Shown here: positions 3,992 through 26,012 of the stretch, in pieces | Numbering within the stretch: the first letter of the stretch is position 1 | How the letters are laid out: each line of letters starts with the position of its first letter | Notes under the pieces: model-generated | Databases searched by the model: none | Seen by the model: the letters and a program-made list of their open reading frames with translations, nothing else | What the model was told of the DNA's origin: nothing | Made by a program: the position numbers and the translations under genes | NCBI GenBank assembly: GCA_000091165.1 | Contig: FP565575.1 | Coordinates: 2,670,001 to 2,702,000 of the forward strand | Length of the DNA stretch: 32,000 bases | Direction: 5' to 3' | From: Candidatus Methylomirabilis oxygeniifera | GTDB lineage: Bacteria > Methylomirabilota > Methylomirabilia > Methylomirabilales > Methylomirabilaceae

Positions 3992-4627
3992 TTACACGTA
4001 TTCCCGGACACCTTTGAAGCTTTTCCGATGGATAGGGCTCACACCGAACCGCGCAATGGTCGACAGATGTTCCGAGGTCCCGTACCCTTTGTGTCGGCCG
4101 AAGCCGTAGTGCGGGAGCGCCAGGTCGTACGCCCGCATGATCCGGTCCCGGGCAACCTTCGCAAGGATGGATGCCGCAGAGATGGAGAAGCAAAGACGAT
4201 CCCCGGAAGGGATCAATCGACAAGGGATGGCGCAGCGTGGGGATTGGTCGCCGTCGATCAGGACGAAACCGGGGGGTGGGTTCAACGCCTCGACGGCGCG
4301 CCGCATGGCAAGCATTGTTGCCTGGAGGATATTGAGGGCATCGATCATCTCCTCCTGGACCACGCCGAAGCCGACGGCGACCGCTTCGGACATGATCGCC
4401 AGGTCGAGTCGCTCGCGTTGCTGCGCGCTGAGCGCCTTGGAGTCATCCACCCCTTTGATCGCACACGTCGGCGAAAGAATCACGGCGGCAGCGACGACCG
4501 GCCCGGCCAGCGACCCGCGACCGGCCTCATCAACCCCCGCAATAAGGCGATACCCCGCAGCACGGAGACACGATTCCATCTCTACGGGCGGTACCGCAGC
4601 GATCCTCTTTACGTCAATACCGTTCAC
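3992..4627 (-). CDS. rnhB: Ribonuclease HII
   Basis: IAGVDEAGRGSLAGPVVAAAVIL catalytic motif. GTG start at 4627; alternative ATG at 4579. Confidence 0.9.
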   Translation of the reverse strand: MNGIDVKRIAAVPPVEMESCLRAAGYRLIAGVDEAGRGSLAGPVVAAAVILSPTCAIKGVDDSKALSAQQRERLDLAIMSEAVAVGFGVVQEEMIDALNILQATMLAMRRAVEALNPPPGFVLIDGDQSPRCAIPCRLIPSGDRLCFSISAASILAKVARDRIMRAYDLALPHYGFGRHKGYGTSEHLSTIARFGVSPIHRKSFKGVREYV

Positions 4628-4632
4628 TGTAG

Positions 4633-4699
4633 CCGTTCATGGTGAGCCCGTCGAACCAGGCACGGGAAAGCCGCCCTTCGACAAGCTCAGGGTGAACGG
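4633..4699. repeat. REP-like imperfect palindrome between rnhB and rplS
   Basis: Arms CCGTTCATGGTGAGCCCGTCGAA (4633-4655) and TTCGACAAGCTCAGGGTGAACGG (4677-4699) pair at 18 of 23 positions around a 21-nt loop. Confidence 0.6.
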
Positions 4700-5165: not shown

Positions 5166-5906
5166 TCAACCGGTCCCTTGTTCTTCTTCGATCTCTCTCA
5201 GGAGATCACGATCCTCTTCGCTCAGCGACGCATGCTGCAGGAGATCGGGCCGACGCACCTTGGTGCGCCGGAGGGCTTCCTTCCGACGCCACCGCCTGAT
5301 CCGCTCATGGTCGCCGGACAACAACACGTCAGGAACCGCAAGCCCCTGCACATTCGGTGGCCGTGTATACTGTGGAAAGTCCAGCAACGCGTCCACAAAT
5401 GAGTCGTACCGGGCCGAGTCTTCATCGCCCAGCGCGCCGGGCAGTAACCGGATCACGGCATCCAGGAGCACAAGCGCCGGCAACTCTCCCCCTGTCAGGA
5501 CGTAGTCTCCAATCGAAATCTCGTCGGGCGACAGGAGGTCTCTCACCCGCTCATCGAACCCCTCGTACCGGCCGCAGACTAACAGCAGGTGCCGGTGCTC
5601 GATAAGCTCTCGGGCAATTGCCTGCTTAAACGGGCGACCCTGTGGGGTCAGGAGGACCAGATAAGACTCCGGTCCCTGTCGGAGGCTCTCGACCGCCTCA
5701 AAGATCGGCTCGGGTTTGAGCACCATGCCGGCGCCGCCCCCGTACGGCCGATCATCCACGACGGCATGGCGATCATGCGTATAGCCCCGAAGATCGTGAA
5801 CTGTGATCTGCACGATGCCGCGCTGCTGGGCTCGCTTGAGGATGCTTTCCGACAGAGGTCCCTGAAAAAAGCCAGGGAAGAGGGTGAGGATATCATATCG
5901 CCTCAG
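5166..5906 (-). CDS. trmD: tRNA (guanine37-N1)-methyltransferase TrmD; non-canonical start
   Basis: Conserved N-terminus [25 protein letters not shown] lies in frame upstream of the track's GTG at 5813. An in-frame stop sits at 5913-5915. No ATG/GTG/TTG lies between, so CTG at 5906 is the most plausible start. Confidence 0.85.
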
Positions 5907-9605: not shown

Positions 9606-10031
9606 TTAGATGAACACGGCGGGTGACACCTGAAACCGCTTTGCCAAAAGACGAACCTGCCGAATGTTCAATTCCCGCTTGCCATTCAGGATTTCGGATA
9701 CAACGCCCTGAGAGCCGATATCCGACAAGTCCGATTGGTTCAACCCATGCTCTTCCATGAACAACCGAAGCATGTCGGCTTCAGCACATTCAGGCATGGG
9801 ATGATGCGTTTCTTCGTAATCATGAATCAATGTGCCTAGCGTATCTAACAGCCCATACAGGGGATGACGCTCGTTATTACCGATTTCATCCAATAACTCG
9901 TTTAGCCGCTCAATCGCAGTATCATATTCACGCTCATTGCGAATCGTGAGGATAGAACGGATATTGGCCCAATGACTGTGGAGGTCTTTCGTGAGCGTGC
10001 TCATTGTCCCAAAAGTCTCCTCAGTGGTCAT
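9606..10031 (-). CDS. higA: HigA-like XRE-family antitoxin (COG5499 type); no cognate toxin present
   Basis: C-terminal HTH LNQSDLSDIGSQGVVSEILNGKRELNIRQVRLLAKRF. N-terminal IRNEREYDTAIERLNELLDEIG...HPLYGLLDTLGTLIHDYE is typical of this antitoxin class. Alternative start at 10004. Confidence 0.75.
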   Translation of the reverse strand: MTTEETFGTMSTLTKDLHSHWANIRSILTIRNEREYDTAIERLNELLDEIGNNERHPLYGLLDTLGTLIHDYEETHHPMPECAEADMLRLFMEEHGLNQSDLSDIGSQGVVSEILNGKRELNIRQVRLLAKRFQVSPAVFI

Positions 10032-10136
10032 TGCGAGGAAGCCGCAGCAACCGCGGCAATCTCACTGTAGTATTCGGCGTCATGGTATTGGGCCGGTAAG
10101 ACCAGGGAGATTGCTTCGCCTATGCCTCGCAATGAC
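10027..10136. repeat. 110-bp nested palindromic element occupying the slot where higB would be
   Basis: Outer 12-bp arms GTCATTGCGAGG (10027-10038) / CCTCGCAATGAC (10125-10136). Inner 8-bp arms GCAATCTC (10056-10063) / GAGATTGC (10107-10114). Confidence 0.6.
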
Positions 10137-10171
10137 GAGCGGGAGGTGATGGTCTCGGGTTCCTGTGTAAC

Positions 10172-10495
10172 TCAAAGCTCCGGTGCCTGCTCGCGTCGCC
10201 ATTTAGAAAAGTCACGAGCACCGTGAAGAAAGGCGCGGATGATCACTCTGTCCTCGTACACCTTATACAACATGCGGTAGTCGTACACGAGCAACTCACG
10301 GAGGGCTGAGTCGCCGACTTCCTTTACCATTCGGCCTCGCTCCGCAAGTGTCGAGAGACTTGCAGCCGTATCCAGAGCACGGGTGAGTACACGGACCGCA
10401 CCGTCTGGCGATTCCTGCGAGATGTACGCGACAACCTCGTCGAGCGCTTGACGCGCCGACTCGGCCCAGATTACCCGGCGCGTCCGAGCAGCCAC
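10172..10495 (-). CDS. parE: ParE/RelE-family type II toxin
   Basis: VIWAESARQALDEVVAYI...RELLVYDYRMLYKVYEDRVIIRAFLHGARD fits ParE architecture. GTG start overlaps the upstream antitoxin gene by 25 nt. Confidence 0.8.
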   Translation of the reverse strand: MAARTRRVIWAESARQALDEVVAYISQESPDGAVRVLTRALDTAASLSTLAERGRMVKEVGDSALRELLVYDYRMLYKVYEDRVIIRAFLHGARDFSKWRREQAPEL

Positions 10496-11292: not shown

Positions 11293-11527
11293 CGGATGTC
11301 AACCATCCTTCATAACTCGCTGATTCGTCCAGCGTGGGGTATGGCTCGTGACCTCCAGGATGTGGGGGCCTGGTGCTCATCGATCCGCGGTAACGGCTTT
11401 ATCGCTCGCCTGCCCAGGATGTCGCCTGAGAAGAATCACAACGCGGCTTCAAGAATATGGAATAGTTACGGCTCGATAGAGGTGCCCAGCGCCTTTTTAC
11501 TTACGGTTAACATTTTCTCACTTGGGA

Positions 11528-16891: not shown

Positions 16892-18189
16892 TCGTTGTCG
16901 GCACGCAGTGGGGCGATGAAGGGAAGGGGAAGATCGTCGATCTTCTCTCCGAGTATTTCGATGCGGTGGCCCGGTACCAGGGTGGGTCCAACGCCGGCCA
17001 TACGGTCGTTGTAGAAGAGGAGAAGATTGTCCTGCATCTGGTCCCGTCAGGCGTGCTGAGGAAGGGGAAGGTCTGCATTCTGGGGAACGGTGTGGTGATT
17101 GATCTGATCGCCCTCATCCAGGAAATGGATCAGCTCGGAAGGCTGCACGTCAAGATCGAGGAGAACTTTTTTATCAGCAAAAACGCGCATCTGGTGCTCC
17201 CCTATCATATGATCCTCGACGCGGAGCTGGAGCGGCTCCGAGAGGGTCGGCAGATCGGGACGACCCGACGCGGAATCGGGCCGGCCTATGTCGATAAGAT
17301 GGCGAGGGCAGGGATCCGGGTGGGCGACCTGGCCGACCGCGACCGCTTCAAGGAGCAGCTCCGCAGCAACCTTGAAGCGAAGCGAGCCCAGTTTCCCCAC
17401 CATCAGGAGTTGCAAGAGCTGGATCTCGAAAAGATGGCGGTGGAGCAGCTTGAACTGTTCGAGCGCATTCGCGGCTTCGTGGTAGACAGCTCCCTCGTGA
17501 TTCACGACCTGATTAAAACCGGGAAGCGCGTCCTGTTTGAGGGGGCACAGGGGACCCTCCTGGACGTTGATCTTGGGACCTATCCTTATGTCACCTCATC
17601 GAGCGCCACGGCCGGAGGCGCCTGCACCGGGACCGGGGTCAGTCCGCTGACGATCGACGGTGTCCTCGGCGTCACCAAGGCCTATGCGACGCGAGTCGGC
17701 GAGGGTCCGATGCCGACGGAGCTGACGGATAGCATCGGTCAGATACTGCAGACGCGCGGGCAGGAGTTCGGGGCCACAACGGGACGACCGAGGCGCTGCG
17801 GCTGGTTCGATGCCGTGGCCGTCAGGTACAGCGCCAGAATCAACGGCCTCTCGGCTCTCGCGTTGATGAAGCTGGACGTCCTGGATGCCTGTGACCCGAT
17901 CCGGATCTGTACGGGCTACCGACACAACGATAGGATTCTCCGAGAGTTTCCGAACGAAATCGGTCTGCTGCAGGCGTGTGAGCCGATCTATGAAGAGGTG
18001 CCGGGCTGGAACCAGAGTATTGCGGGTATCACCTCATACAAACATCTGCCGGCCAACTGCCGGGCCTATATCGAACGGATTGAGGGACTGACGGGGGTCA
18101 AGGCCGGGCTCATTTCGACAGGGCCCCGGCGGGACCAGACGATCCTTCGCTCGACACCGGCCTTGCGGCAGTGGGGGCTGACACGCTAA
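16879..18189 (+). CDS. purA: Adenylosuccinate synthase
   Basis: [21 protein letters not shown] N-terminus (ATG 16879, 13-nt overlap with hisZ). [11 protein letters not shown] and TGRPRRCGW motifs. Confidence 0.95.
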   Translation: [436 protein letters not shown]

Positions 18190-18204
18190 GCTGCCGTAGA
18201 ACGA

Positions 18205-18280
18205 GCATTCAGCGCTCAGCCATCAGCTTCAGACAATACCGTAATTACCGGAAAAGCTGACTGCTGAACGCTGATAGCTG
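18205..18280. repeat. Large imperfect hairpin built from 7-nt-periodic TCAGC/GCTGA units, downstream of purA
   Basis: Left arm GCATTCAGCGCTCAGCCATCAGCTT pairs with the reverse complement of the right arm AAGCTGACTGCTGAACGCTGATAGC at about 20 of 25 positions. About 24-nt loop. Confidence 0.55.
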
Positions 18281-18290
18281 CCCTTTTCAC

Positions 18291-18366
18291 GACCCGTTAG
18301 CTCAGTTGGCAGAGCTCCTGCCTTTTAAGCAGGGAGTCTCGGGTTCGAGTCCCGAACGGGTCACCA
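18291..18366 (+). tRNA. tRNA-Lys (anticodon UUU)
   Basis: Hand-folded cloverleaf: acceptor GACCCGT/ACGGGTC, D arm GCTC-AGTTGGC-AGAGC, anticodon stem CCTGC/GCAGG with loop CTTTTAA, T arm TCGGG-TTCGAGT-CCCGA, encoded CCA. Confidence 0.95.
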
Positions 18367-18400
18367 CTCCACCCTCGCTCTCCTTCATGGAAAAGAATTC

Positions 18401-19411
18401 ATGCGCATCGGTCCCCACCAGCTCCAAAATAACCTGATTGTCGCCCCCATGGCTGGCGTGACGGATCGGCCTTTCCGCATGTTGTGCAGGAGCATGGGCG
18501 CAGGCATGGCGGTTAGCGAAATGGTGGCCTCCAACTCGCTGCTGTATGGTTCGGAAAAAACCAAACGGCGCGCCAATCACGAGGGCGAAACCGATCCGAT
18601 CTCGGTGCAGCTCCTCGGCGCCGACCCGAAAATGCTGGCACAGGCCGCCCGTTACAACGTGGATGCGGGGGCGCAAATCATAGACATCAATATGGGCTGC
18701 CCGGCGAAAAAAATCTGCAATGTGATGGCCGGTTCCGCGCTGTTGCAGAATGAGGCGCTGGTGGCGCAAATACTTGAAACGGTAGTGGCGGCGGTGAGCG
18801 TACCGGTCACCTTGAAAATCCGCACCGGATGGGATACACAAAACCGCAATGCGGTGCGCATCGCGCAGATCGCCGAAATCAGCGGTATCCAGGCGCTTGC
18901 CATTCATGGCCGCACGCGCGCCTGTGCCTACACCGGCGAGGCGGAATATGACACCATCGCGGCAGTGAAAGCCAGCGTGAAGATTCCCATCATCGCCAAC
19001 GGTGACATCACTACCCCGGAAAAAGCCCACTATGTTGTGCAGCACACCGGTGCAGATGCCGTGATGATAGGCCGCGCCGCGCAGGGCCGTCCGTGGCTGT
19101 TCCGCGAAATCGCACATTTTCTTGATACCGGTCTACACCTGCCCGCGCCACAAGTGGTTGAAATCCAGCGCGTGCTGCTCAATCATCTGCACGGCCTGTA
19201 CGATTTGTACGGCGAACATACCGGCTTGCGTGTGGCGCGTAAACACATCTCCTGGTACACCAAAGGGCTGGCCGGTTCGGCGCAGTTCCGTCGCTGCATG
19301 AATCAACTGGAAAGCATTGCGGAACAATTGAAGGTAGTAAATGATTTTTTTGATGGTCAGTTGCAGCGCGGGGAACGCCTGCACTATGCCGAGGAACAGA
19401 TTGGACAATAG
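18401..19411 (+). CDS. dusB: tRNA-dihydrouridine synthase B
   Basis: APMAGVTDRPFR, DINMGCPAKK, IANGDI motifs and the C-terminal helical domain (ARKHISWYTKGL). Confidence 0.9.
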   Translation: MRIGPHQLQNNLIVAPMAGVTDRPFRMLCRSMGAGMAVSEMVASNSLLYGSEKTKRRANHEGETDPISVQLLGADPKMLAQAARYNVDAGAQIIDINMGCPAKKICNVMAGSALLQNEALVAQILETVVAAVSVPVTLKIRTGWDTQNRNAVRIAQIAEISGIQALAIHGRTRACAYTGEAEYDTIAAVKASVKIPIIANGDITTPEKAHYVVQHTGADAVMIGRAAQGRPWLFREIAHFLDTGLHLPAPQVVEIQRVLLNHLHGLYDLYGEHTGLRVARKHISWYTKGLAGSAQFRRCMNQLESIAEQLKVVNDFFDGQLQRGERLHYAEEQIGQ

Positions 19412-19412
19412 G

Positions 19413-19500
19413 GACAGTGACTATTTGTGTAGATTTGCCTGCATTGGCTGATAACCAAGGCATCAACTCAGTACGGATTTGCCGCGCCGATTATGCTCGC
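19413..19500 (+). repeat. R repeat, copy 1 (homologous to 22607-22690)
   Basis: GACAGTGACTATTTGTGTAGATTTGCCTGCATTGGCTGATAACCAAGGCATCAACT aligns with GACCGTGACCATTTATATAGATTTGCCTGCATCGGCTGAGAACTAAGGCATCAACT at about 85% by eye. Weaker similarity continues for about 30 nt. Confidence 0.7.
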
Positions 19501-19664
19501 CGTTATACCGGATTTCAAGGACAGACGCAAACGGTAACGCTTCTTAGGCTACACCCGCTTGGGCCTTCCCGGTCCCGGCAGTAGCCGGCCTACATTCAGG
19601 ATTCGGCTGCGCCGGTAGAGACCCCACGGATACATGAGGTTTGTGCCCTCCTTTGGGGACCCCA

Positions 19665-19791
19665 TGAAGTTCTTCTGCAGTACAAGCATACAACGCTCAT
19701 CATGCTGCCACCTTCCCCGAGAAGAGAATCGTCAGATCGAGGTGTCGGAGCGCGACATATATATTTAGATCGAATCCCGGACGGGTCACCA
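19665..19791 (+). repeat. C repeat, copy 1, ending in a tRNA-Lys 3'-end-like core
   Basis: GCAGTACAAGCATACAACGCTCATCATGCTGCCACCTTCCCCGAGAAGAGAATCGTCAGATCGAGGTGTCGGAGCGCGACATAT..TCGAATCCCGGACGGGTCACCA aligns with 24616-24722 at roughly 80% with small indels. Confidence 0.7.
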
Positions 19792-20303
19792 ATTTTTCCA
19801 ATTTCCTGCTCACCCCCGCCATTGCCTTTCTATGGCTCGCGGCCCATCTATTCACGGTAGCCGTAGCGTAGGGTAGATCGTGCAGGTTAGTGGTTGAAAT
19901 CGACACTGCCGGACTCACCATCGGGACCCTCAAGGCGCTCAGTTTATCCGGTCCAGTCCGCTCATTCTTTTCCATTGACACCCTTGCAAGCTGAATGCTA
20001 CAAGCCGGATACTCGGTTCTATGCTTCATTACTTCCCGCAGATAAACAGGATGTCGGCATGGCTCGCGGCGGGAATCCGGTCCTAGAAGGTCCTGTGACA
20101 ACCTGATGGAGGGGACGTCAGAGCGATGCGCAAGAGCCAGCTTTGTGAGCCTGTCGAAGAGACATCACCGCTAGGTAAGTTCTGCGAAAGACGTGGATGC
20201 TTTAGTGTTCGTGAGTTGGACCATTAACAAGGAGCGTCACGCATGGATGACTGGCTCTTAACCGCGCAGGAGGTAGCCCCAAGATGAAGACGGAGGCGAC
20301 AGT

Positions 20304-22559
20304 ATGTATCTATTGAGCAGCATACAAAAGACCTGGGCGGGTTTGCGTTGGTTTGTCGGCGGTGTGGCAGTTATGACCATACTGGCGGCGTCTGGGGTCG
20401 CCGCTGGCCAGGATATGGGTGGCGCAGCCTACCCTGGGGCACACGTCGAAGGCGAGTTTGCACCTGCCCTTCCCAGCGTGCGCGCTCTGCCGCAACGGCG
20501 GCTGCCACAATCCCGACAGCCAGCGCAGGTGGCTCTCGACCGTGTCGAGGCGGCGCACTTGAAGATGGAGGCGACAGACCAGCCATCTAAACCTGGGGTG
20601 CCGCTACAGATCGGCGTCAGCCGCGATGTACCGATGCTGCGTAATGCCGCTCGAACCTCGGTGCTCATGTCTTGGACGTCCATTCCCGGCGGGCAGATTG
20701 CCGCGATCAGCATTACTTCTCCTGACGCCCTCGGCTTGCGTCTGGGCTTGTTGGTTGAAAAGCTGCCTCGTACGGCTCTGCTGCGGTTTTATGCCCAGGG
20801 GGCGGAGCAGGTGTTCGAGGTGTCGGGCGGGGAGATTATGGACACCATCGCCCGCAATCTCGCCGCCGGCGACGCAAGCGATGACGCCCGGACTTACTGG
20901 TCGCCCGTCATCGACGGCCAGGAAATGACGGTGGAAATCGAGCTGCCTGCCGGGGTGTCTCCGGATGAGGTGATGTTTTCCATACCGCGTATTTCCCATT
21001 TGTTTTCATCGCCTCTGGATCCCCGCGCCTTGCCAAGACAAATTGGCAGTGCGGAGTGGTGCAATCTCGATTCCATGTGCTATACATCGACATGGGGAAA
21101 CGAATCCCTGGCGACCGCCAAAATGACATTCACGGAAGACGGTTCGAGTTATCTCTGTACGGGCAGCTTAATGAATGATAGCGATCCCTCCACGTTCATT
21201 CCCTATTTCCTGACTGCCAACCATTGTATTTCGACGCAAACTGTGGCCTCAACCCTGCAAACCTATTGGTTTTATCGTGCCTCAAGTTGCAACAGCGGTA
21301 CGTTGAGTCCCAGCACCCAGACATTGACCAGCGGGGCCACACTGCTCTATGCCGGTTCGAATACCGATACGAGCTTCTTGCGACTGAACAGCTCAGCCCC
21401 TCCTGGGGCTGGGTATTCAGGGTGGTCGGCGGGTCTGCCGGTGCTCTCCACCCCGATCATTGGCATCCATCATCCGAATGGCGATTTGCAAAAGATCAGC
21501 GCTGGAAACATCACAGATTACTCCAGTTGCTCCAATGGCAATTCTTTCACTTGCAGTTCGGCGTCCTCTGGCAGCGCCGACCATCTCAAGGTTGTCTGGG
21601 GCCTTGGCATTACCGAGGGCGGCAGCAGCGGTTCCGGTCTTTGGATTGTATACGGCAGCAGCCACTACTTGGTGGGCCAGTTACATGGTGGAAACTCTTC
21701 CTGCGTCACGCCCACTGCTCCAGATTACTACGGTCGTTTCGATGTAGCTTACAACGCGGCGTTGTTTCAATGGCTGGGAACCACCCCGGCGAACTACACG
21801 TTGTCGGTGACGGGCGCCGGCACGGGCCAGGGCACGGTGACGGGGCCTGGAATTAACTGCACGATCAGCGCTGGGAGCACGAGCGGGACGTGCAGTGCGA
21901 ACTACGCGTCTGGAACGGGGGTCTCGCTGACCGCAACGTCCATCGGAGTCTCGACATTCAGTGGCTGGAGTGGGAACTGCGCCGCCGATGGGACCGTCAC
22001 GCTGGAGGCGAACAAGATCTGTACGGCCACCTTCACTAGACCGCTCATACTCTCGACCACCTCCCTGTCCGCAGAGGAGCAGGGAGTCGCCTATTGGTAC
22101 GCGCTGCAGGCCGAAGGCGGAATGCCCCCTTACACCTGGAGCCGTATCAAGGATAAGCTCCCCAAAGGCCTGACCCTGGATGCCGCAGGCACCCTCAGCG
22201 GGATCCCGACCAAGGCCAAGACCGCGACCTTTACCGTCCAGGTGACGGATGCCGCATGGGCCTCAGCGACGCAGAACCTCTCTCTGCAGATCGTCAAACG
22301 TGTCGATCTCAAGACCAAAAAACTGAGTCGGGGTACGGTCGGGATGCCGTACGCAGCCATGCTCAAAACCAATGGCGGGATTCCGCCGCTGACCTTCAGC
22401 CTGGTCGGCGGGGCGCTCCCGCCAGGCCTTACCTTCGACCCGGGTACGGGGCAGATCTCTGGGACCCCTACGCTAGCCGGAACCTTCGACTTCCAGACGA
22501 TGGTAACCTCGAGCGGCGGCTCCAGCGATCAGGGGAACATTCGGATCAAGATCAAGTAG
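20304..22559 (+). CDS. Secreted S1-family (lysyl-endopeptidase-like) serine peptidase with C-terminal InlB-B-repeat-like and two Ig-like (He_PIG-type) domains
   Basis: GGAGG lies 7 nt upstream of the ATG; hydrophobic signal region. Triad contexts LTANHC (His), DTSFLRL (Asp), GGSSGSGLW (Ser). Repeats LPKGLTLDAAGTLSGIPT and LPPGLTFDPGTGQISGTPT. Confidence 0.85.
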   Translation: MYLLSSIQKTWAGLRWFVGGVAVMTILAASGVAAGQDMGGAAYPGAHVEGEFAPALPSVRALPQRRLPQSRQPAQVALDRVEAAHLKMEATDQPSKPGVPLQIGVSRDVPMLRNAARTSVLMSWTSIPGGQIAAISITSPDALGLRLGLLVEKLPRTALLRFYAQGAEQVFEVSGGEIMDTIARNLAAGDASDDARTYWSPVIDGQEMTVEIELPAGVSPDEVMFSIPRISHLFSSPLDPRALPRQIGSAEWCNLDSMCYTSTWGNESLATAKMTFTEDGSSYLCTGSLMNDSDPSTFIPYFLTANHCISTQTVASTLQTYWFYRASSCNSGTLSPSTQTLTSGATLLYAGSNTDTSFLRLNSSAPPGAGYSGWSAGLPVLSTPIIGIHHPNGDLQKISAGNITDYSSCSNGNSFTCSSASSGSADHLKVVWGLGITEGGSSGSGLWIVYGSSHYLVGQLHGGNSSCVTPTAPDYYGRFDVAYNAALFQWLGTTPANYTLSVTGAGTGQGTVTGPGINCTISAGSTSGTCSANYASGTGVSLTATSIGVSTFSGWSGNCAADGTVTLEANKICTATFTRPLILSTTSLSAEEQGVAYWYALQAEGGMPPYTWSRIKDKLPKGLTLDAAGTLSGIPTKAKTATFTVQVTDAAWASATQNLSLQIVKRVDLKTKKLSRGTVGMPYAAMLKTNGGIPPLTFSLVGGALPPGLTFDPGTGQISGTPTLAGTFDFQTMVTSSGGSSDQGNIRIKIK

Positions 22560-22606
22560 GATGAGCAAGCGACCGGGCTCGGGTCTCAGCAAGCATTTAA
22601 AATAGC

Positions 22607-22690
22607 GACCGTGACCATTTATATAGATTTGCCTGCATCGGCTGAGAACTAAGGCATCAACTGGGGGTGTAGATTATGCCCCCGATCGCC
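22607..22690 (+). repeat. R repeat, copy 2
   Basis: See copy 1. Contains TAGATTTGCC (22624-22633) and a second degenerate copy TAGATTATGCC (22670-22680), mirroring 19430-19439 and 19475-19483 in copy 1. Confidence 0.7.
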
Positions 22691-22847
22691 GAGCAGTGGT
22701 TGAAATCTCCACACTGCAATGTCAAAAGGGCACTCCCCGCTGTCACTTGGTCCGTCCTTTCCCACGATGACGAACTACTTGGTCGTCGGATACCAGAATA
22801 TCGGGAAACCGAGAAACGGATCACAGAAACTGAGGCGGCAGGGGAGT

Positions 22848-22877
22848 CCAAAGCCCAGTCAATTGACTGGGCTTTGG
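22848..22877. promoter_or_regulatory. Perfect 30-bp palindrome CCAAAGCCCAGTCAA|TTGACTGGGCTTTGG
   Basis: Verified base by base. No flanking U-tract on either strand, so an operator or RNA hairpin is more likely than a canonical terminator. Confidence 0.5.
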
Positions 22878-23013
22878 TTCGGGCGATTCGCTGTCAGAAA
22901 ACTGGATGGGCGGATACAGGTACAACGTTTTCCGTCGTCCGCCTTCATACAAATATTTTATTGCGTACTGGAAAGGGTTATAGAGTGTTAGGCTAACTTC
23001 AAGAAAGGAAGAG

Positions 23014-23829
23014 ATGGACTTCATTGATGTGAGCTGGGCAAATTTCATTGCCGCGATCAAGCCAGACCTGCTCCATGATCGCCGGTTTATCTACAGGGGC
23101 CAGGAGTCCAGCAACTGGCGTCTCCAGACAAGTCTCCATAGAACCGGACAATGGCGTACGCCAGAGGACATTTCCTCCTATATTCAACATATTGTCCCGC
23201 TCGCGCATGAAGCCGTAGCGTCATGGGAGGGGGTCCGTCGAGATCTGTCCAACGGTTTTCAGCTGGCAGAATTCCTGGCCTATCTGCAACACAATAGTTT
23301 CCCTACGCCTCTCCTGGATTGGACCTATTCCCCTTACATTGCTGCATTTTTTGCTTTTGAGTGTATCAATCACTATCAACCCGAGCACGACTACGTATGC
23401 ATCTACCGGTTTGATAAGGGAGGCTGGATTCGCTCTTACAAGCAGAGCTATGACTACAGTGACAAGAACCTACACGTATCGATTATTGAGCCATCCTCAG
23501 TGGGGAACCCGAAGCTCATGCTTCAGCAGGGACTCTTCATGTATACGAATCAGGACGATATCGAAAGCCACATCGAATTGAACAGCAAGAACCCCAAGGA
23601 GCCCTATCTCAGGAAGTTCCGGATTCATTGTCGAGAGCGGCAGGTTGCGTTGCGGGAGCTACGGCTCATGAATATCACGCGCATGCAGCTCTTTCCATCG
23701 GTCGAAAGCGTCTGTCGCAAGGTCGCAACCGATGTCTCTCTAATGTTCCCAATGGGCAAGACACGGTCCGAGATTAGCAAGGAAATCTTTGAACAATTCC
23801 TTGCGAGCTATAAGACCGGCGAAAAATGA
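23014..23829 (+). CDS. FRG-domain protein
   Basis: FIYRGQESSNWRLQTSLHR (F/Y-R-G motif) and LQHNSFPTPLLDWTYSPYIAAFFAF match the FRG domain as I recall it. AAGGAAG RBS. Visibly lower G+C than the flanks. Confidence 0.85.
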   Translation: MDFIDVSWANFIAAIKPDLLHDRRFIYRGQESSNWRLQTSLHRTGQWRTPEDISSYIQHIVPLAHEAVASWEGVRRDLSNGFQLAEFLAYLQHNSFPTPLLDWTYSPYIAAFFAFECINHYQPEHDYVCIYRFDKGGWIRSYKQSYDYSDKNLHVSIIEPSSVGNPKLMLQQGLFMYTNQDDIESHIELNSKNPKEPYLRKFRIHCRERQVALRELRLMNITRMQLFPSVESVCRKVATDVSLMFPMGKTRSEISKEIFEQFLASYKTGEK

Positions 23830-23948
23830 CCGCACAGCAAGATATCGTAGCCGATCTGTCACGCTTGCACTTGAGCCCTTTGAGCGGGCAGAAGCTCAGG
23901 CGAATTGAAACAGGCGAATACGGGCTAGCAAGCGCGCCAGGCGGCTAA
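23826..23948 (+). CDS. Possible 40-aa ORF translationally coupled to the FRG gene (ATGA overlap)
   Basis: Hand-translated MTAQQDIVADLSRLHLSPLSGQKLRRIETGEYGLASAPGG. Its ATG overlaps the FRG TGA stop. No recognisable family; could be a gene remnant. Confidence 0.2.
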   Translation: MTAQQDIVADLSRLHLSPLSGQKLRRIETGEYGLASAPGG

Positions 23949-24058
23949 ACACAACATTGCAGAAGGCGATCAGTGAGGCCGCCTGCAAGCCGCGGCAAAT
24001 CAGCCCATTGTGGGGGATAAGCCGCCGACGCGGCTGGCGTGGGTGGGTCAGAATCATC

Positions 24059-24087
24059 TTGACCGGTTGGGCTCACGATAGGATAGT
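24059..24087 (+). promoter_or_regulatory. Sigma70-like promoter for the TA pair (TTGACC-17-GATAGT)
   Basis: TTGACC 24059-24064, GATAGT 24082-24087, about 70 nt upstream of ATG 24158. Confidence 0.4.
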
Positions 24088-24157
24088 ATGAATAAATTCG
24101 CTATTGGAACGTGGAGTTGTCCTGAGAGACACGCTGCCGGTTTCGGAGGTTTCAGCT

Positions 24158-24358
24158 ATGAGCAAAGTGGAGTCGATCGAAGAACAGATCAAGACGCTGT
24201 CAGCGGAAGAGGTCGCGAAGCTTCGGGAGTGGTTTCTTGGATTCGACTGGACGCTGTGGGATCAGCAGCTCGAGCGCGACGTTGCAGCCGGGAAACTCGA
24301 TGTCTTGGCGGACAAGGCGCTTCGGGATCACGCGGCCGGAAAGACGACCCCTCTTTGA
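24158..24358 (+). CDS. Type II antitoxin (partner of RelE/ParE toxin)
   Basis: ATG 24158 preceded by GGAGG at 7-nt spacing. MSKVESIEEQIKTLSAEEVAKLREWF...DVAAGKLDVLADKAL resembles antitoxins of this pairing. Its stop overlaps the toxin start. Confidence 0.7.
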   Translation: MSKVESIEEQIKTLSAEEVAKLREWFLGFDWTLWDQQLERDVAAGKLDVLADKALRDHAAGKTTPL

Positions 24359-24609
24359 ATCATCATGCGTCCCCGGACTTCTGGGCCTGCTACCGGTCTT
24401 TACCGGAGGATATCCGGAAGCTCGCGGATCACGCCTACGAACACCTTAAACACGATCCGCAGTATCCATCGCTGCATTTCAAGAAAGTCGGGCGTTTCTG
24501 GTCTGCGCGCGTGGGAGGCGGCTATCGCGCGGTGGCAGTGGAAGGTGCTGACAGTTTCATCTGGTTCTGGATCGGCACCCATACGGACTACGAGAAGTTG
24601 CTTAGCTAA
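24355..24609 (+). CDS. RelE/ParE-family type II toxin
   Basis: TTG start at 24355 overlaps the antitoxin TGA. YRSLPEDIRKLADHAYEHLKHDPQYPSLHFKKVGRFWSARVGGGYRAV...WFWIGTHTDYEKLL fits the family. Confidence 0.75.
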   Translation: MNHHASPDFWACYRSLPEDIRKLADHAYEHLKHDPQYPSLHFKKVGRFWSARVGGGYRAVAVEGADSFIWFWIGTHTDYEKLLS

Positions 24610-24615
24610 CCCATT

Positions 24616-24722
24616 GCAGCACAAGCCTCCACCGCTCATCATGCGCCACCTTCCCGGAGAAAGGGATCGTCAGATCGAGGTGCGGAGCGCTACATATTTG
24701 CATCGAATCCCCGACGGGTCAC
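24616..24722 (+). repeat. C repeat, copy 2, ending in a tRNA-Lys 3'-end-like core
   Basis: See copy 1. Core TCGAATCCCCGACGGGTCAC at 24703-24722. Weaker similarity extends left into the last codons of the toxin gene (GAGAAGTTGCTT vs GAAGTTCTTC). Confidence 0.7.
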
Positions 24723-24735
24723 TATTCTCGGAGGA

Positions 24736-25248
24736 CTATTCCGTTGCCCCGGCTTCCTTGAGGAGTCGTACGACCTCGTCCTCGCTCCTATTAAACGCTA
24801 TCTTCATGGCCGTGACGCCATTGTTGGTTTTGGCGTGCACATCCGCACCCGCTGCGAGCAGCGCTTTCACGACCTCGCACTGGCCTTCCTGAGACGCCCA
24901 CAGCAAGGCCGTTGCGCCATTGTCCTGTCTGGCGTTCACATCCACGCCCTGGGCGAGCAGCGCCTGTACGACCTCGAGATGGCCGGCTAGGGACGCTCTC
25001 ATCAAGGCCGTCCAGCCTGCATCGGATTTGACGTGTACCCACGCGCCCGCCGCAATCAGCGCCTGTACGACCTCGAGATGGCCTCTGAGGGACGCTCTCA
25101 TCAAGGCCGTCCAGCCATATTCATCTCTGGCGTTCACATTCGCGCCCGCCGCAATCAGCGCGTGCACGGCCTTGGGAGAGCCGTCCTGAGCCGCTCTCAT
25201 CAAGGCTGTCATACCGTGTTTACCTGCGGCGTTCACATCGTCGCTCAT
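24736..25248 (-). CDS. Ankyrin-repeat protein (about 5 repeats)
   Basis: Repeats G-TALM-A---GH-EVV-ALIAAGA-VN. ATG 25248 preceded by AAGGAGGAG at 5-nt spacing, 20 nt after the queC stop. Confidence 0.85.
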   Translation of the reverse strand: MSDDVNAAGKHGMTALMRAAQDGSPKAVHALIAAGANVNARDEYGWTALMRASLRGHLEVVQALIAAGAWVHVKSDAGWTALMRASLAGHLEVVQALLAQGVDVNARQDNGATALLWASQEGQCEVVKALLAAGADVHAKTNNGVTAMKIAFNRSEDEVVRLLKEAGATE

Positions 25249-25268
25249 GTTCGCTCCTCCTTCATCGA

Positions 25269-26012
25269 TCACAGGTGTGCCGGCTTATCTTCGTCCTTCG
25301 CCTCTCCAAGGCCGGGGTCCGCGATGCCGGCTTCGGCGAAGCCTTTCTCCCTCAGTATACAACTGTCGCAGGCGCGGCAGGGCCGTCCATCCTGGGTCGG
25401 GTCGTAACAGCTCCAGGTCAGCCGGAAATCGATCCCGAGGGCAGCGCCCCGGCGTATGATCTCGGCCTTGGACAGGTGGATCAGCGGAGTGTAAATGGTG
25501 AGCGTGGATCGGCCTTCAGCGCCGGCGCGGGTTGCCAGATTCGCCATACGCTCGAAGGCCGCGATATATTCAGGACGACAATCCGGATACCCGCTGTAGT
25601 CGATTGCGTTGACCCCGAGCACAATATCTTCCGAGCCGATCACCTCGGCCCAGGCCAGCGCATAGGAGAGAAAGATGGTATTGCGGGCGGGAACGTATGT
25701 TACGGGGATACCGGAGCCGATCTCGTCCATCTCACGACCCTTCGGCACCGGGATCTCAGCGGTCAGCGCCGACCCTCCGATCCGGCGAAGATCAAGGTCG
25801 AGGATCAGGTGCTGCGATGCGCCGAGGGCCGCCGCGATCCGCGTCGCGCTTTCCACCTCGCGCGCGTGACGCTGGCCGTAGCGAAAGGTCAGGGCATGAA
25901 GCTGATACCCCTTGGCCTTTGCCAGCGCGGCTGCCGTTGCGGAGTCGATCCCGCCGCTCAGCAGGACCACTGCAGGCTTGCCTGCCTGTGCGCTGCGCGC
26001 AGACAGGTTCAC
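25269..26012 (-). CDS. queC: 7-cyano-7-deazaguanine synthase
   Basis: PP-loop [13 protein letters not shown] and C-terminal Zn cysteines [20 protein letters not shown] at 26012 overlaps the queE TAG by 1 nt. The track's longer ORF overlaps queE. Confidence 0.9.

Follow-up and report, generated by a model that had tools for sequence, protein, structure and literature searches.

We asked what kind of DNA lies between the tRNA-Lys(UUU) gene and queC of Candidatus Methylomirabilis oxygeniifera, where two repeats, designated R and C, each occur twice in the same order and orientation. Candidatus Methylomirabilis is a nitrite-dependent methane oxidiser of the NC10 phylum, and the locus was analysed within a stretch of 32,000 nucleotides (contig FP565575.1, positions 2,670,001 to 2,702,000), hereafter called the window and numbered from its first letter. 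An initial annotation, made from the letters alone, had read R1..C1 and R2..C2 as a short and a cargo-bearing module of a cassette family targeted to tRNA ends. Our own reading, to which we assign a probability of about 0.62, is that window positions 18367-25306 form a composite island between tRNA-Lys(UUU) and queC, which successive integrase-type insertions would have built and in which integrase-less modules would have accreted in tandem.

Two related genomes, L073 (GCA_023249055.1) and L075 (GCA_028869615.1), carry the empty site purA-tRNA-Lys-queC. (L-numbers from L029 to L075 denote comparison loci and contigs; L001 is the contig that extends beyond the right end of the window.) Homology of the window to both genomes ends at 18366, the 3' end of the tRNA, and returns at 25307. 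Because queC stands directly behind tRNA-Lys in these relatives, the comparison identifies 18367-25306 as inserted DNA throughout, the dusB and ankyrin genes included.

Other relatives carry different DNA at the same tRNA. In L074 the gene for a 436-aa Phage_integrase protein directly adjoins the tRNA and is followed by SLFN_AlbA_2. In L067 an island of dusB, a small open reading frame (ORF), Tex and APH is closed by a partial tRNA-Lys at 17525-17563, which runs from the anticodon loop to CCA with the T-arm deleted; its dusB is shared with the window, at 95% nucleotide identity over 18289-19397. Two complete tRNA-Lys genes in L069 (11353-11428 and 20123-20198) bound an 8.7-kb island rich in insertion sequences (IS), containing TPR, DnaJ, DUF433, IS21 and an IS256-type transposase; the second of these tRNA genes is preceded by a duplicated purA 3' end, a repeat much longer than the usual attachment (att) core. 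L065/L066 present PIN, two small ORFs, an antitoxin/ParE_like pair of the type found in the window, and then C and an IS. Since relatives carry either the empty site or different islands at the same tRNA, the site is, on this comparative evidence, a classical tRNA integration hotspot.

The C repeats tie the inserted DNA to the tRNA gene. C1 (19676-19789) and C2 (24615-24722) are 84% identical over 114 nt with two indels (E 2.6e-28), and both end, as the initial annotation had observed, in a tRNA-Lys-like core, which corresponds to the last 22 nt of tRNA-Lys in the orientation of the tRNA gene (Table 1); allowing up to 3 mismatches, 0 such matches are expected by chance. The sequence X that follows the C1 core begins with TTTTCC, like the native tRNA-Lys flank in L073/L075. 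Window 19770-19844, comprising the C1 core and about 55 nt beyond it, matches the tRNA-Lys 3' end and its flank in L065 (2452-2515) at 75% over 75 nt (blastn E 8e-8). X and the partial R copy Rp next to it (window 19814-20026) are also present behind the C of L065, past the inserted IS (L065 6301-6490; 76% over 213 nt), so that the C/core/X/Rp junction is common to the two loci while the sequence on its left side differs. Because one right-hand sequence adjoins a whole tRNA in L065 and a C arm in the window, the pattern fits recombination inside the tRNA 3' end, and the best reading of C is an attR-type junction between an element arm and a displaced tRNA-Lys end.

The arm of C, from TTATGCCGCCACCTTCCCCGAGAAGGGGATCGTCAGATCGAGGTGCCGGAGCGC to AAATATTTAGATCGAATCCCCG, hardly varies over about 75 nt in contexts that are otherwise unrelated; ATCGAATCCC is kept in all C copies and ATCGAATCCCCG in most. 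Sequence conservation gives some indication of where the exchange took place. The L050 sequence departs straight after CCCCG, and the L053 C end is degraded at that point, with CCCAG in place of CCCCG, for which reasons the crossover likely fell within the T-stem, on its 3' strand. The orthologous loci L040 and L052 have no homology directly past the core, over 589 and 167 nt respectively, until an OmpA-like gene is reached. We also note a diverged C-arm copy on the minus strand of L050 (4617-4703; about 71% identity by eye, nhmmer E 2.5e-4) that abuts a genuine tRNA-Glu (4561-4637, plus strand), relative to which it is inverted, 460 nt from a full element.

Further copies of C, which the initial annotation had anticipated, do exist. 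A core-pattern scan of GTDB representative genomes yielded L040 (Ca. Methylomirabilis sp.), and an arm-pattern scan of Joint Genome Institute metagenomes yielded L047, L052, L050 (the same as L044 and L049) and L053; together with L065/L066, C is found with different cargo in at least six further Methylomirabilis-type contexts. In L053, another relative in which the tRNA-Lys site is occupied differently, C is preceded by IS debris, Phd/ParE, CopG and the window-type toxin in truncated form. The antitoxin/ParE_like pair of the window recurs ahead of C in both L053 and L065. In L040, L047, L052 and L050, C makes up the last ~90 nt of a conserved noncoding element of about 275 nt, which opens with an 11-bp R-like hairpin, GTGTAGATTAC-ACCCCC-GTAATCTACAC, carrying the same GTGTAGATT motif as R. 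That the element is noncoding follows from a stop codon in L050, which closes the sole ORF running through it in L040, and from the indels between C1 and C2, which break any reading frame. Hairpin, ~170 nt and C are the standard form of the element in these four contexts, and the short hairpin and C unit is 80-93% identical amid unrelated flanks. None of the other Methylomirabilis contigs compared contains the hairpin motif, which is therefore not a general repetitive extragenic palindromic (REP) sequence.

These comparisons bear on the 379-bp module, which had been taken for a deletion derivative of the longer one on the grounds that C similarity reached into the toxin gene and that a relic of this gene preceded C1. 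The similarity in fact sets in 5-6 nt past the toxin stop codon (24607-24609). When the 76 nt ahead of C1 were compared with the 3' end of the window's own toxin gene, 921 of 2000 shuffles scored as well; against the L065 toxin the match was marginal, with 32 of 2000 shuffles as good. Neither module 1 nor the element body gave a tblastn hit to the toxin or the antitoxin. The 379-bp module resembles the standard short form of the element and is not obviously a deletion derivative.

In two of the loci, R-like sites form series with cargo genes. The L040 series runs from an R-like site (4902-4838) through an MBL hydrolase, a weaker, non-hairpin variant (~3254-3189) and a lipoprotein to the hairpin of the full element at 2612; that of L050 runs from an R-like site at 11391 through DUF3800, an alpha/beta hydrolase and SIR2_2 to a site at 5446 with the full element. 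The two L050 sites have about 95 nt in common and diverge right after CCCCCGTAA. All annotated cargo between a tRNA or R and C is co-oriented with C. L040 also has, at about 638-660 on the minus strand, the remains of a C end (GGAGCGAGCCCGACGGGTCACCA, lacking the T-loop part), 1.7 kb downstream of the full element and past the OmpA-like gene, which shows that units are arrayed in that genome too.

In the window, R1 (19407-19468) and R2 (22601-22662) are 87% identical over 62 nt (blastn E 1.5e-16), and their likeness continues more weakly for ~35 nt, to about 19505 and 22695. Each holds TAGATTTGCC (at 19430-19439 and 22624-22633) and a degenerate second copy downstream (CGGATTTGCC at 19475 and TAGATTATGCC at 22670), a pairing already pointed out in the initial annotation, for which we measured a spacing of 45-46 nt. 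A third site in R2, the inverted GTGNAGATT, extends that copy to 22715, and R2 resembles the R-like sites ahead of cargo in L040 and L050. The window's own R copies fit the hairpin consensus poorly. Because the 9-mers iterate in direct and inverted orientation at conserved spacing with variable sequence between them, we infer that R is a cluster of putative sites where a recombinase or proteins accessory to it would bind, comparable to arm-type sites.

The left edge of R1 (19398) is the exact endpoint of homology to the dusB loci of L067, L029 and L031. Since the edge coincides with this breakpoint, R1 marks a recombination junction of some kind. No significant copy of the tRNA core was detected within R, the local alignment of its left part with the cores and the tRNA being no better than that of shuffles, and R..C is therefore not an attL..attR pair. 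Among the other loci, the 62-nt left part of R1 and R2 has no match save a weak one just outside the window: its first 20 nt are matched 18/20 by AATAGGGACAGACACTATTT on the minus strand of L001 (20264-20283; E 0.07, borderline), about 1.3 kb past the window's right end. This 20-mer stands directly after a fragment of a Phd-like antitoxin, and an Unstab_antitox/ParE pair is located downstream of it.

We propose that the island would have arisen through a series of site-specific integrations at the 3' end of tRNA-Lys, followed by decay and reshuffling. C1 and C2 would be attR-type junctions in which the conserved arm of an incoming element (~90 nt here and up to ~275 nt in full copies) became fused to the segment from T-loop to CCA, the part that recombination within the tRNA displaces or duplicates. 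The units would run core to core and not R to C. Unit 1 (18367-19791) would comprise dusB, R1 and C1, and unit 2 (19792-24724) X, Rp, the endopeptidase gene, R2, FRG, the toxin-antitoxin pair and C2, with an ankyrin remnant next. Candidate attL sites would be the tRNA itself for unit 1 and the C1 core with X for unit 2. R may represent a second conserved landmark of the same element family, with direct and inverted GTGTAGATT sites, which stands ahead of co-oriented cargo and also forms the 5' end of the 275-nt element. The modules would have lost their integrase and become remnants of the kind known as cis-mobilizable elements (CIMEs), and any present movement would depend on a tyrosine integrase that is specific for tRNA-Lys and acts in trans, such as that of L074. 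Part of the initial proposal, that of a non-autonomous family linked to tRNA ends and carrying variable cargo, is thereby retained, whereas R..C as the unit of integration is not. Its statement that the modules carry no recombinase also stands: no integrase, transposase or recombinase domain is present among the ORFs scanned across the window, and none of the modules in the other C-bearing loci encodes a recombinase.

Several observations weigh against this proposal. No integrase is linked to any C or R copy in the loci read, and the integrase island of L074 has no arm sequence in common with C, R or X. Without a significant core copy in R, no classical attL is visible to the left of either R..C module, and R1 is positioned behind dusB and not beside the tRNA. 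Both strands of the T-stem in the resident tRNA-Lys depart from the C cores; the history must therefore be more than a simple 3'-end replacement, and homologous exchange of larger segments between lineages probably contributed to these differences. Finally, the independent copies collected are few and most of the contigs short.

An alternative that we regard as unlikely treats each R..C module as a live non-autonomous cassette, bounded by R on the left and by C on the right, which a recombinase encoded elsewhere moves as a unit to tRNA-like ends. It would accommodate a family with variable cargo and without a recombinase, the recurrence of a short R-like hairpin and C unit in unrelated flanks, and the presence of an integrase at the same tRNA in a relative (L074). 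However, R lacks the core repeat. Moreover, assembled contigs of the window's species that span R and C (several samples) are uniform, with one arrangement only and no cassette-level empty or alternative junction, and C1 core and X are joined in the window as tRNA and X are in L065, which places the recombination point at the core and not at R. Distinctly more doubtful is an undescribed tRNA-Lys-anchored exchange system of NC10, in which R hairpins would be exchange sites for single co-oriented genes and the C/tRNA-like end a platform, driven by an integron-like or an IS110-type DEDD recombinase. In its favour, R-like sites bracket cargo in L040 and L050 (three defence-type genes in the latter), the two L050 sites diverge sharply after a long common stretch, cargo is strictly co-oriented, and a fragment of an IS110 DEDD transposase gene abuts the L052 hairpin. 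Yet neither intI nor attC-type R/L boxes are present, the poor fit of the window's R copies to the hairpin consensus speaks against it, and the copies are too few to demonstrate cassette exchange. The IS110 gene is truncated, occurs in one of seven contexts, on the opposite strand and ~340 nt off, and is more simply explained by an IS having landed there.

We give little credence to the view that the 275-nt element, and hence C, is a gene for a structured noncoding RNA with a tRNA-like 3' end, or for a guide-type RNA whose 3' end matches tRNA-Lys. Such an RNA would explain the strong conservation of noncoding sequence, the G-U pairs tolerated in the 5' hairpin of some copies, and one compensatory change in L050 between the internal GTCGG and the junction base after CCCCG. 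Against it, Rfam (gathering and E-value thresholds; window and four loci) found true tRNAs only and no family for C or the element, ARAGORN found no tRNA or transfer-messenger RNA (tmRNA) in C, and the T-loop fragment of C has no 5' partner for the T-arm or the acceptor stem. In alifold predictions 3 of 73 pairs covary among four full elements, with several broken, and 0 of 19 among eight C arms, where variation breaks pairs. The lack of covariation in the C arm and of an Rfam family therefore points to a site acting at the DNA level. Hardly credible, lastly, is a simple segmental duplication that is local to one genome and belongs to no wider family; two copies within 5 kb in the same orientation would suit it, but it is refuted by the further C contexts with their different neighbours and by the R-type hairpins in L040, L047, L050 and L052.

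Ends of the dif/Xer-like, Tn7-like, IS200/IS605-like and IS91-like kinds were considered and dropped, as the sequence lacks the terminal motifs, inverted ends or target duplications that they would require. An IS110 element with bridge/seek RNA was likewise rejected, since the truncated DEDD_Tnp_IS110 gene of L052 is the only one and none is present in the window or the other copies. That gene (L052 88-975, minus strand, start at 636) has an upstream noncoding region that abuts the element hairpin and holds part of a further tRNA 3' end (TTCGAATCCCCTACCCTCCACCA) together with a hairpin-arm-like GTGCAGATTAGTG motif; the gene may belong to an IS with the hairpin as its target. In distant blastn, plasmids and phages contained no match to the 275-nt element, and four C or R patterns scanned against viral contigs found nothing real, the 17-mer matches being chance hits within one family of related phage genes. 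No related autonomous element is present among the loci collected.

Table 1. Positions of the tRNA gene, repeats, junctions and cargo genes of the island in the window.
Feature	Position	Strand	Evidence or remark
tRNA-Lys(UUU)	18291..18366	+	ARAGORN; Rfam 69.6 bits; candidate anchor (attB/attL side) of the inserted region
dusB	18401..19411	+	Pfam Dus E 1.5e-107; first gene of the inserted DNA
R1	19398..19505	+	two direct GTGTAGATT-type sites (19427, 19472)
C1 arm, conserved element arm (P-arm-like)	19676..19769	+	nhmmer E 2.6e-23 against the 275-nt element profile
C1 core, displaced tRNA-Lys 3' end (T-loop to CCA)	19770..19791	+	20/22 matches to tRNA-Lys 18291-18366
X, flank after C1 core	19792..19865	+	homologous to the sequence behind the intact tRNA-Lys in L065
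Rp, partial third R copy	19866..19907	+	AGTGGTTGAAATC..CAC; GGGTAGAT ... AGTGGTTGAAATCGACAC; 75 nt past C1, ahead of the next cargo gene
751-aa secreted protein, lysyl-endopeptidase-like	20304..22559	+	Lysyl_endopep_N, He_PIG; cargo
R2	22601..22715	+	left 62 nt match R1; right half with GTGTAGATT (22667) and inverted GTGGAGATT (22704-22712) around AGTGGTTGAAATC
FRG-domain protein	23014..23829	+	Pfam FRG E 3.3e-22; cargo
66-aa antitoxin (24158-24358) and ParE_like toxin (24355-24609)	24158..24609	+	cargo
C2 arm	24615..24702	+	pairwise repeat and element-profile comparison
C2 core, displaced tRNA-Lys 3' end	24703..24724	+	18/22 matches to the resident tRNA; 21/22 to the family consensus TCGAATCCCCGACGGGTCACCA
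Ankyrin-repeat gene and replaced queC 3' end	24736..25306	-	still within the inserted region

The gene order in the window is hisZ-like, purA, tRNA-Lys, dusB, R1..C1, the 751-aa secreted protein, R2, FRG, antitoxin, ParE_like toxin and C2; ankyrin, queC, queE and degP follow on the opposite strand. The cargo of the longer module is as initially described, with FRG, a small ORF that proved to be an antitoxin, and a ParE_like toxin, the last of which has a TTG start overlapping the antitoxin stop. The DNA and proteins of the window were found identical in GCA_009026205.1 (contig WBTX01000001.1) and in several Logan assemblies. At the far end of the island, the last ~38 nt of queC (window 25269-25306) differ from the empty-site genomes, and the start of the ankyrin gene overlaps the queC stop by 4 nt; from this altered end and overlap it would follow that the inserted DNA replaced the end of queC and made a queC-ankyrin operon.

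The dusB gene merits separate comment. Among the Methylomirabilis genomes compared it is 93-95% identical at the nucleotide level (window 18385-19399, L029 9973-10997, L031 9985-10999, L067 11462-12469) and is located behind three different tRNAs (Lys, Gln and Arg), with non-homologous flanks between those three locations. The window and L067 have the tRNA-Lys location in common, L029 and L067 the block dusB-sORF-Tex-APH. The DusB protein is 85-89% identical to that of Nitrotoga/Gallionellaceae (Betaproteobacteria), which together with the changing locations suggests transfer across phyla and travel as island cargo. No direct repeats of tRNA-Gln or tRNA-Arg ends were found downstream of dusB in L029 and L031.

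Several Logan contigs start or stop exactly at window 22848-22877, between R2 and the FRG gene. We dropped population or strain heterogeneity as the explanation, because the breaks coincide with a perfect 30-nt palindrome, CCAAAGCCCAGTCAATTGACTGGGCTTTGG, and they are probably an artefact of assembly at k=31. A long imperfect palindrome (TCAGCGCTCAGCCATCAGCTT ... AAGCTGACTGCTGAACGCTGA) is also present between purA and tRNA-Lys (window 18200-18275); one of its arms recurs in Methylomirabilis contigs (L031 16170-16206, L029 7275-7302), and it looks like a REP-like intergenic repeat. An HTH_3/ParE_toxin pair is encoded at window 9606-10495 on the minus strand, and the window and its right flank have in all three ParE-type toxin-antitoxin loci within 34 kb.

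Conceptually, the locus mainly bears out, for a new phylum, an established mode of genome plasticity. It offers a well-resolved tRNA-seeded hypervariable island in Candidatus Methylomirabilis, where one can compare the empty site with an island that encodes an integrase, with modules in decay and with a conserved junction element, and it goes beyond the textbook case in its long, very conserved arm with a terminal hairpin, in R-like sites that bracket single co-oriented genes, and in a dusB that behaves as island cargo. The C arm (~90 nt, or 275 nt in full) with its tRNA-Lys core can be used as a tag to trace such islands, and what they carry, in metagenomes; the cargo across the family so far includes the FRG protein, ParE toxin-antitoxin pairs, SIR2, DUF3800, the secreted protease and dusB-Tex. 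To our knowledge, Candidatus Methylomirabilis is held in enrichment cultures only and has no genetic tools, and the matching integrase, if identified, could give an integration tool for the lineage. Were the exchange system weighed above to be real, it would be functionally integron-like with a different trans-encoded recombinase, shuttling single co-oriented genes between tRNA-adjacent sites, and its cargo would extend from defence genes and toxin-antitoxin pairs even to housekeeping genes, dusB among them.

Among known systems, integron arrays share with the locus short co-oriented cargo units separated by conserved hairpin-capable sites, and toxin-antitoxin cassettes are common in them. We nevertheless rejected an integron, as the window locus has no integrase gene (intI), attI or Pc, its hairpins (GTGTAGATTAC/GTAATCTACAC) lack the R''/L''-L'/R' boxes with their GTTRRRY core, and it is anchored on a tRNA 3' end. 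A tRNA-integrated island of the tyrosine-integrase type likewise shows extra DNA 3' of the tRNA relative to an empty site, and direct repeats of a tRNA 3' segment, but the island in the window contains no integrase gene, and at the same tRNA one is present only in L074.

The tycheposon islands of Prochlorococcus are tRNA-seeded and strewn with partial tRNAs, and newer elements push older ones inward (Hackl et al., bioRxiv 10.1101/2020.12.28.424599). Our locus resembles them in being tRNA-proximal and hypervariable, with scattered full and partial tRNA repeats, newer insertions that displace older ones inward, degenerate integrase-less remnants, and defence and metabolic cargo. It differs in its unrelated arm sequence, and a tycheposon as such was rejected because the hallmark tyrosine recombinase with a replication or packaging module was not found in the window or the C-bearing loci, nor was evidence of excision or packaging. 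The tandem islands targeted to ssrA in Dehalococcoides are also reported to be stacked behind a small RNA gene (PMC3146451) and each bounded by a direct repeat of the gene's 3' end, the target there being a tmRNA and not tRNA-Lys.

The closest parallel is the tandem accretion of decayed, integrase-less elements (CIMEs) at the 3' end of a target gene, with tRNA-Lys among the streptococcal targets (Pavlovic et al. 2004, reviewed in PMC5704250). As in this accretion of integrative conjugative and mobilizable elements, integration and transfer genes are lost and att-type junctions kept, and several tandem units stand behind one target gene, here too a tRNA-Lys, each ending in a copy of the 3' end of that gene. 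The window locus differs in having no conjugation or relaxase remnants and no demonstrable attL core at R, in its NC10 host, and in a right arm that is unusually long (~275 nt), highly conserved, noncoding and provided with a terminal hairpin; cis-mobilisation has not been observed for the window modules. With the streptococcal and Prochlorococcus islands as precedents, the layout is not, as had initially been supposed, without a described counterpart: the kind of element is already known, whereas the particular conserved sequence of the C end has not been described before.

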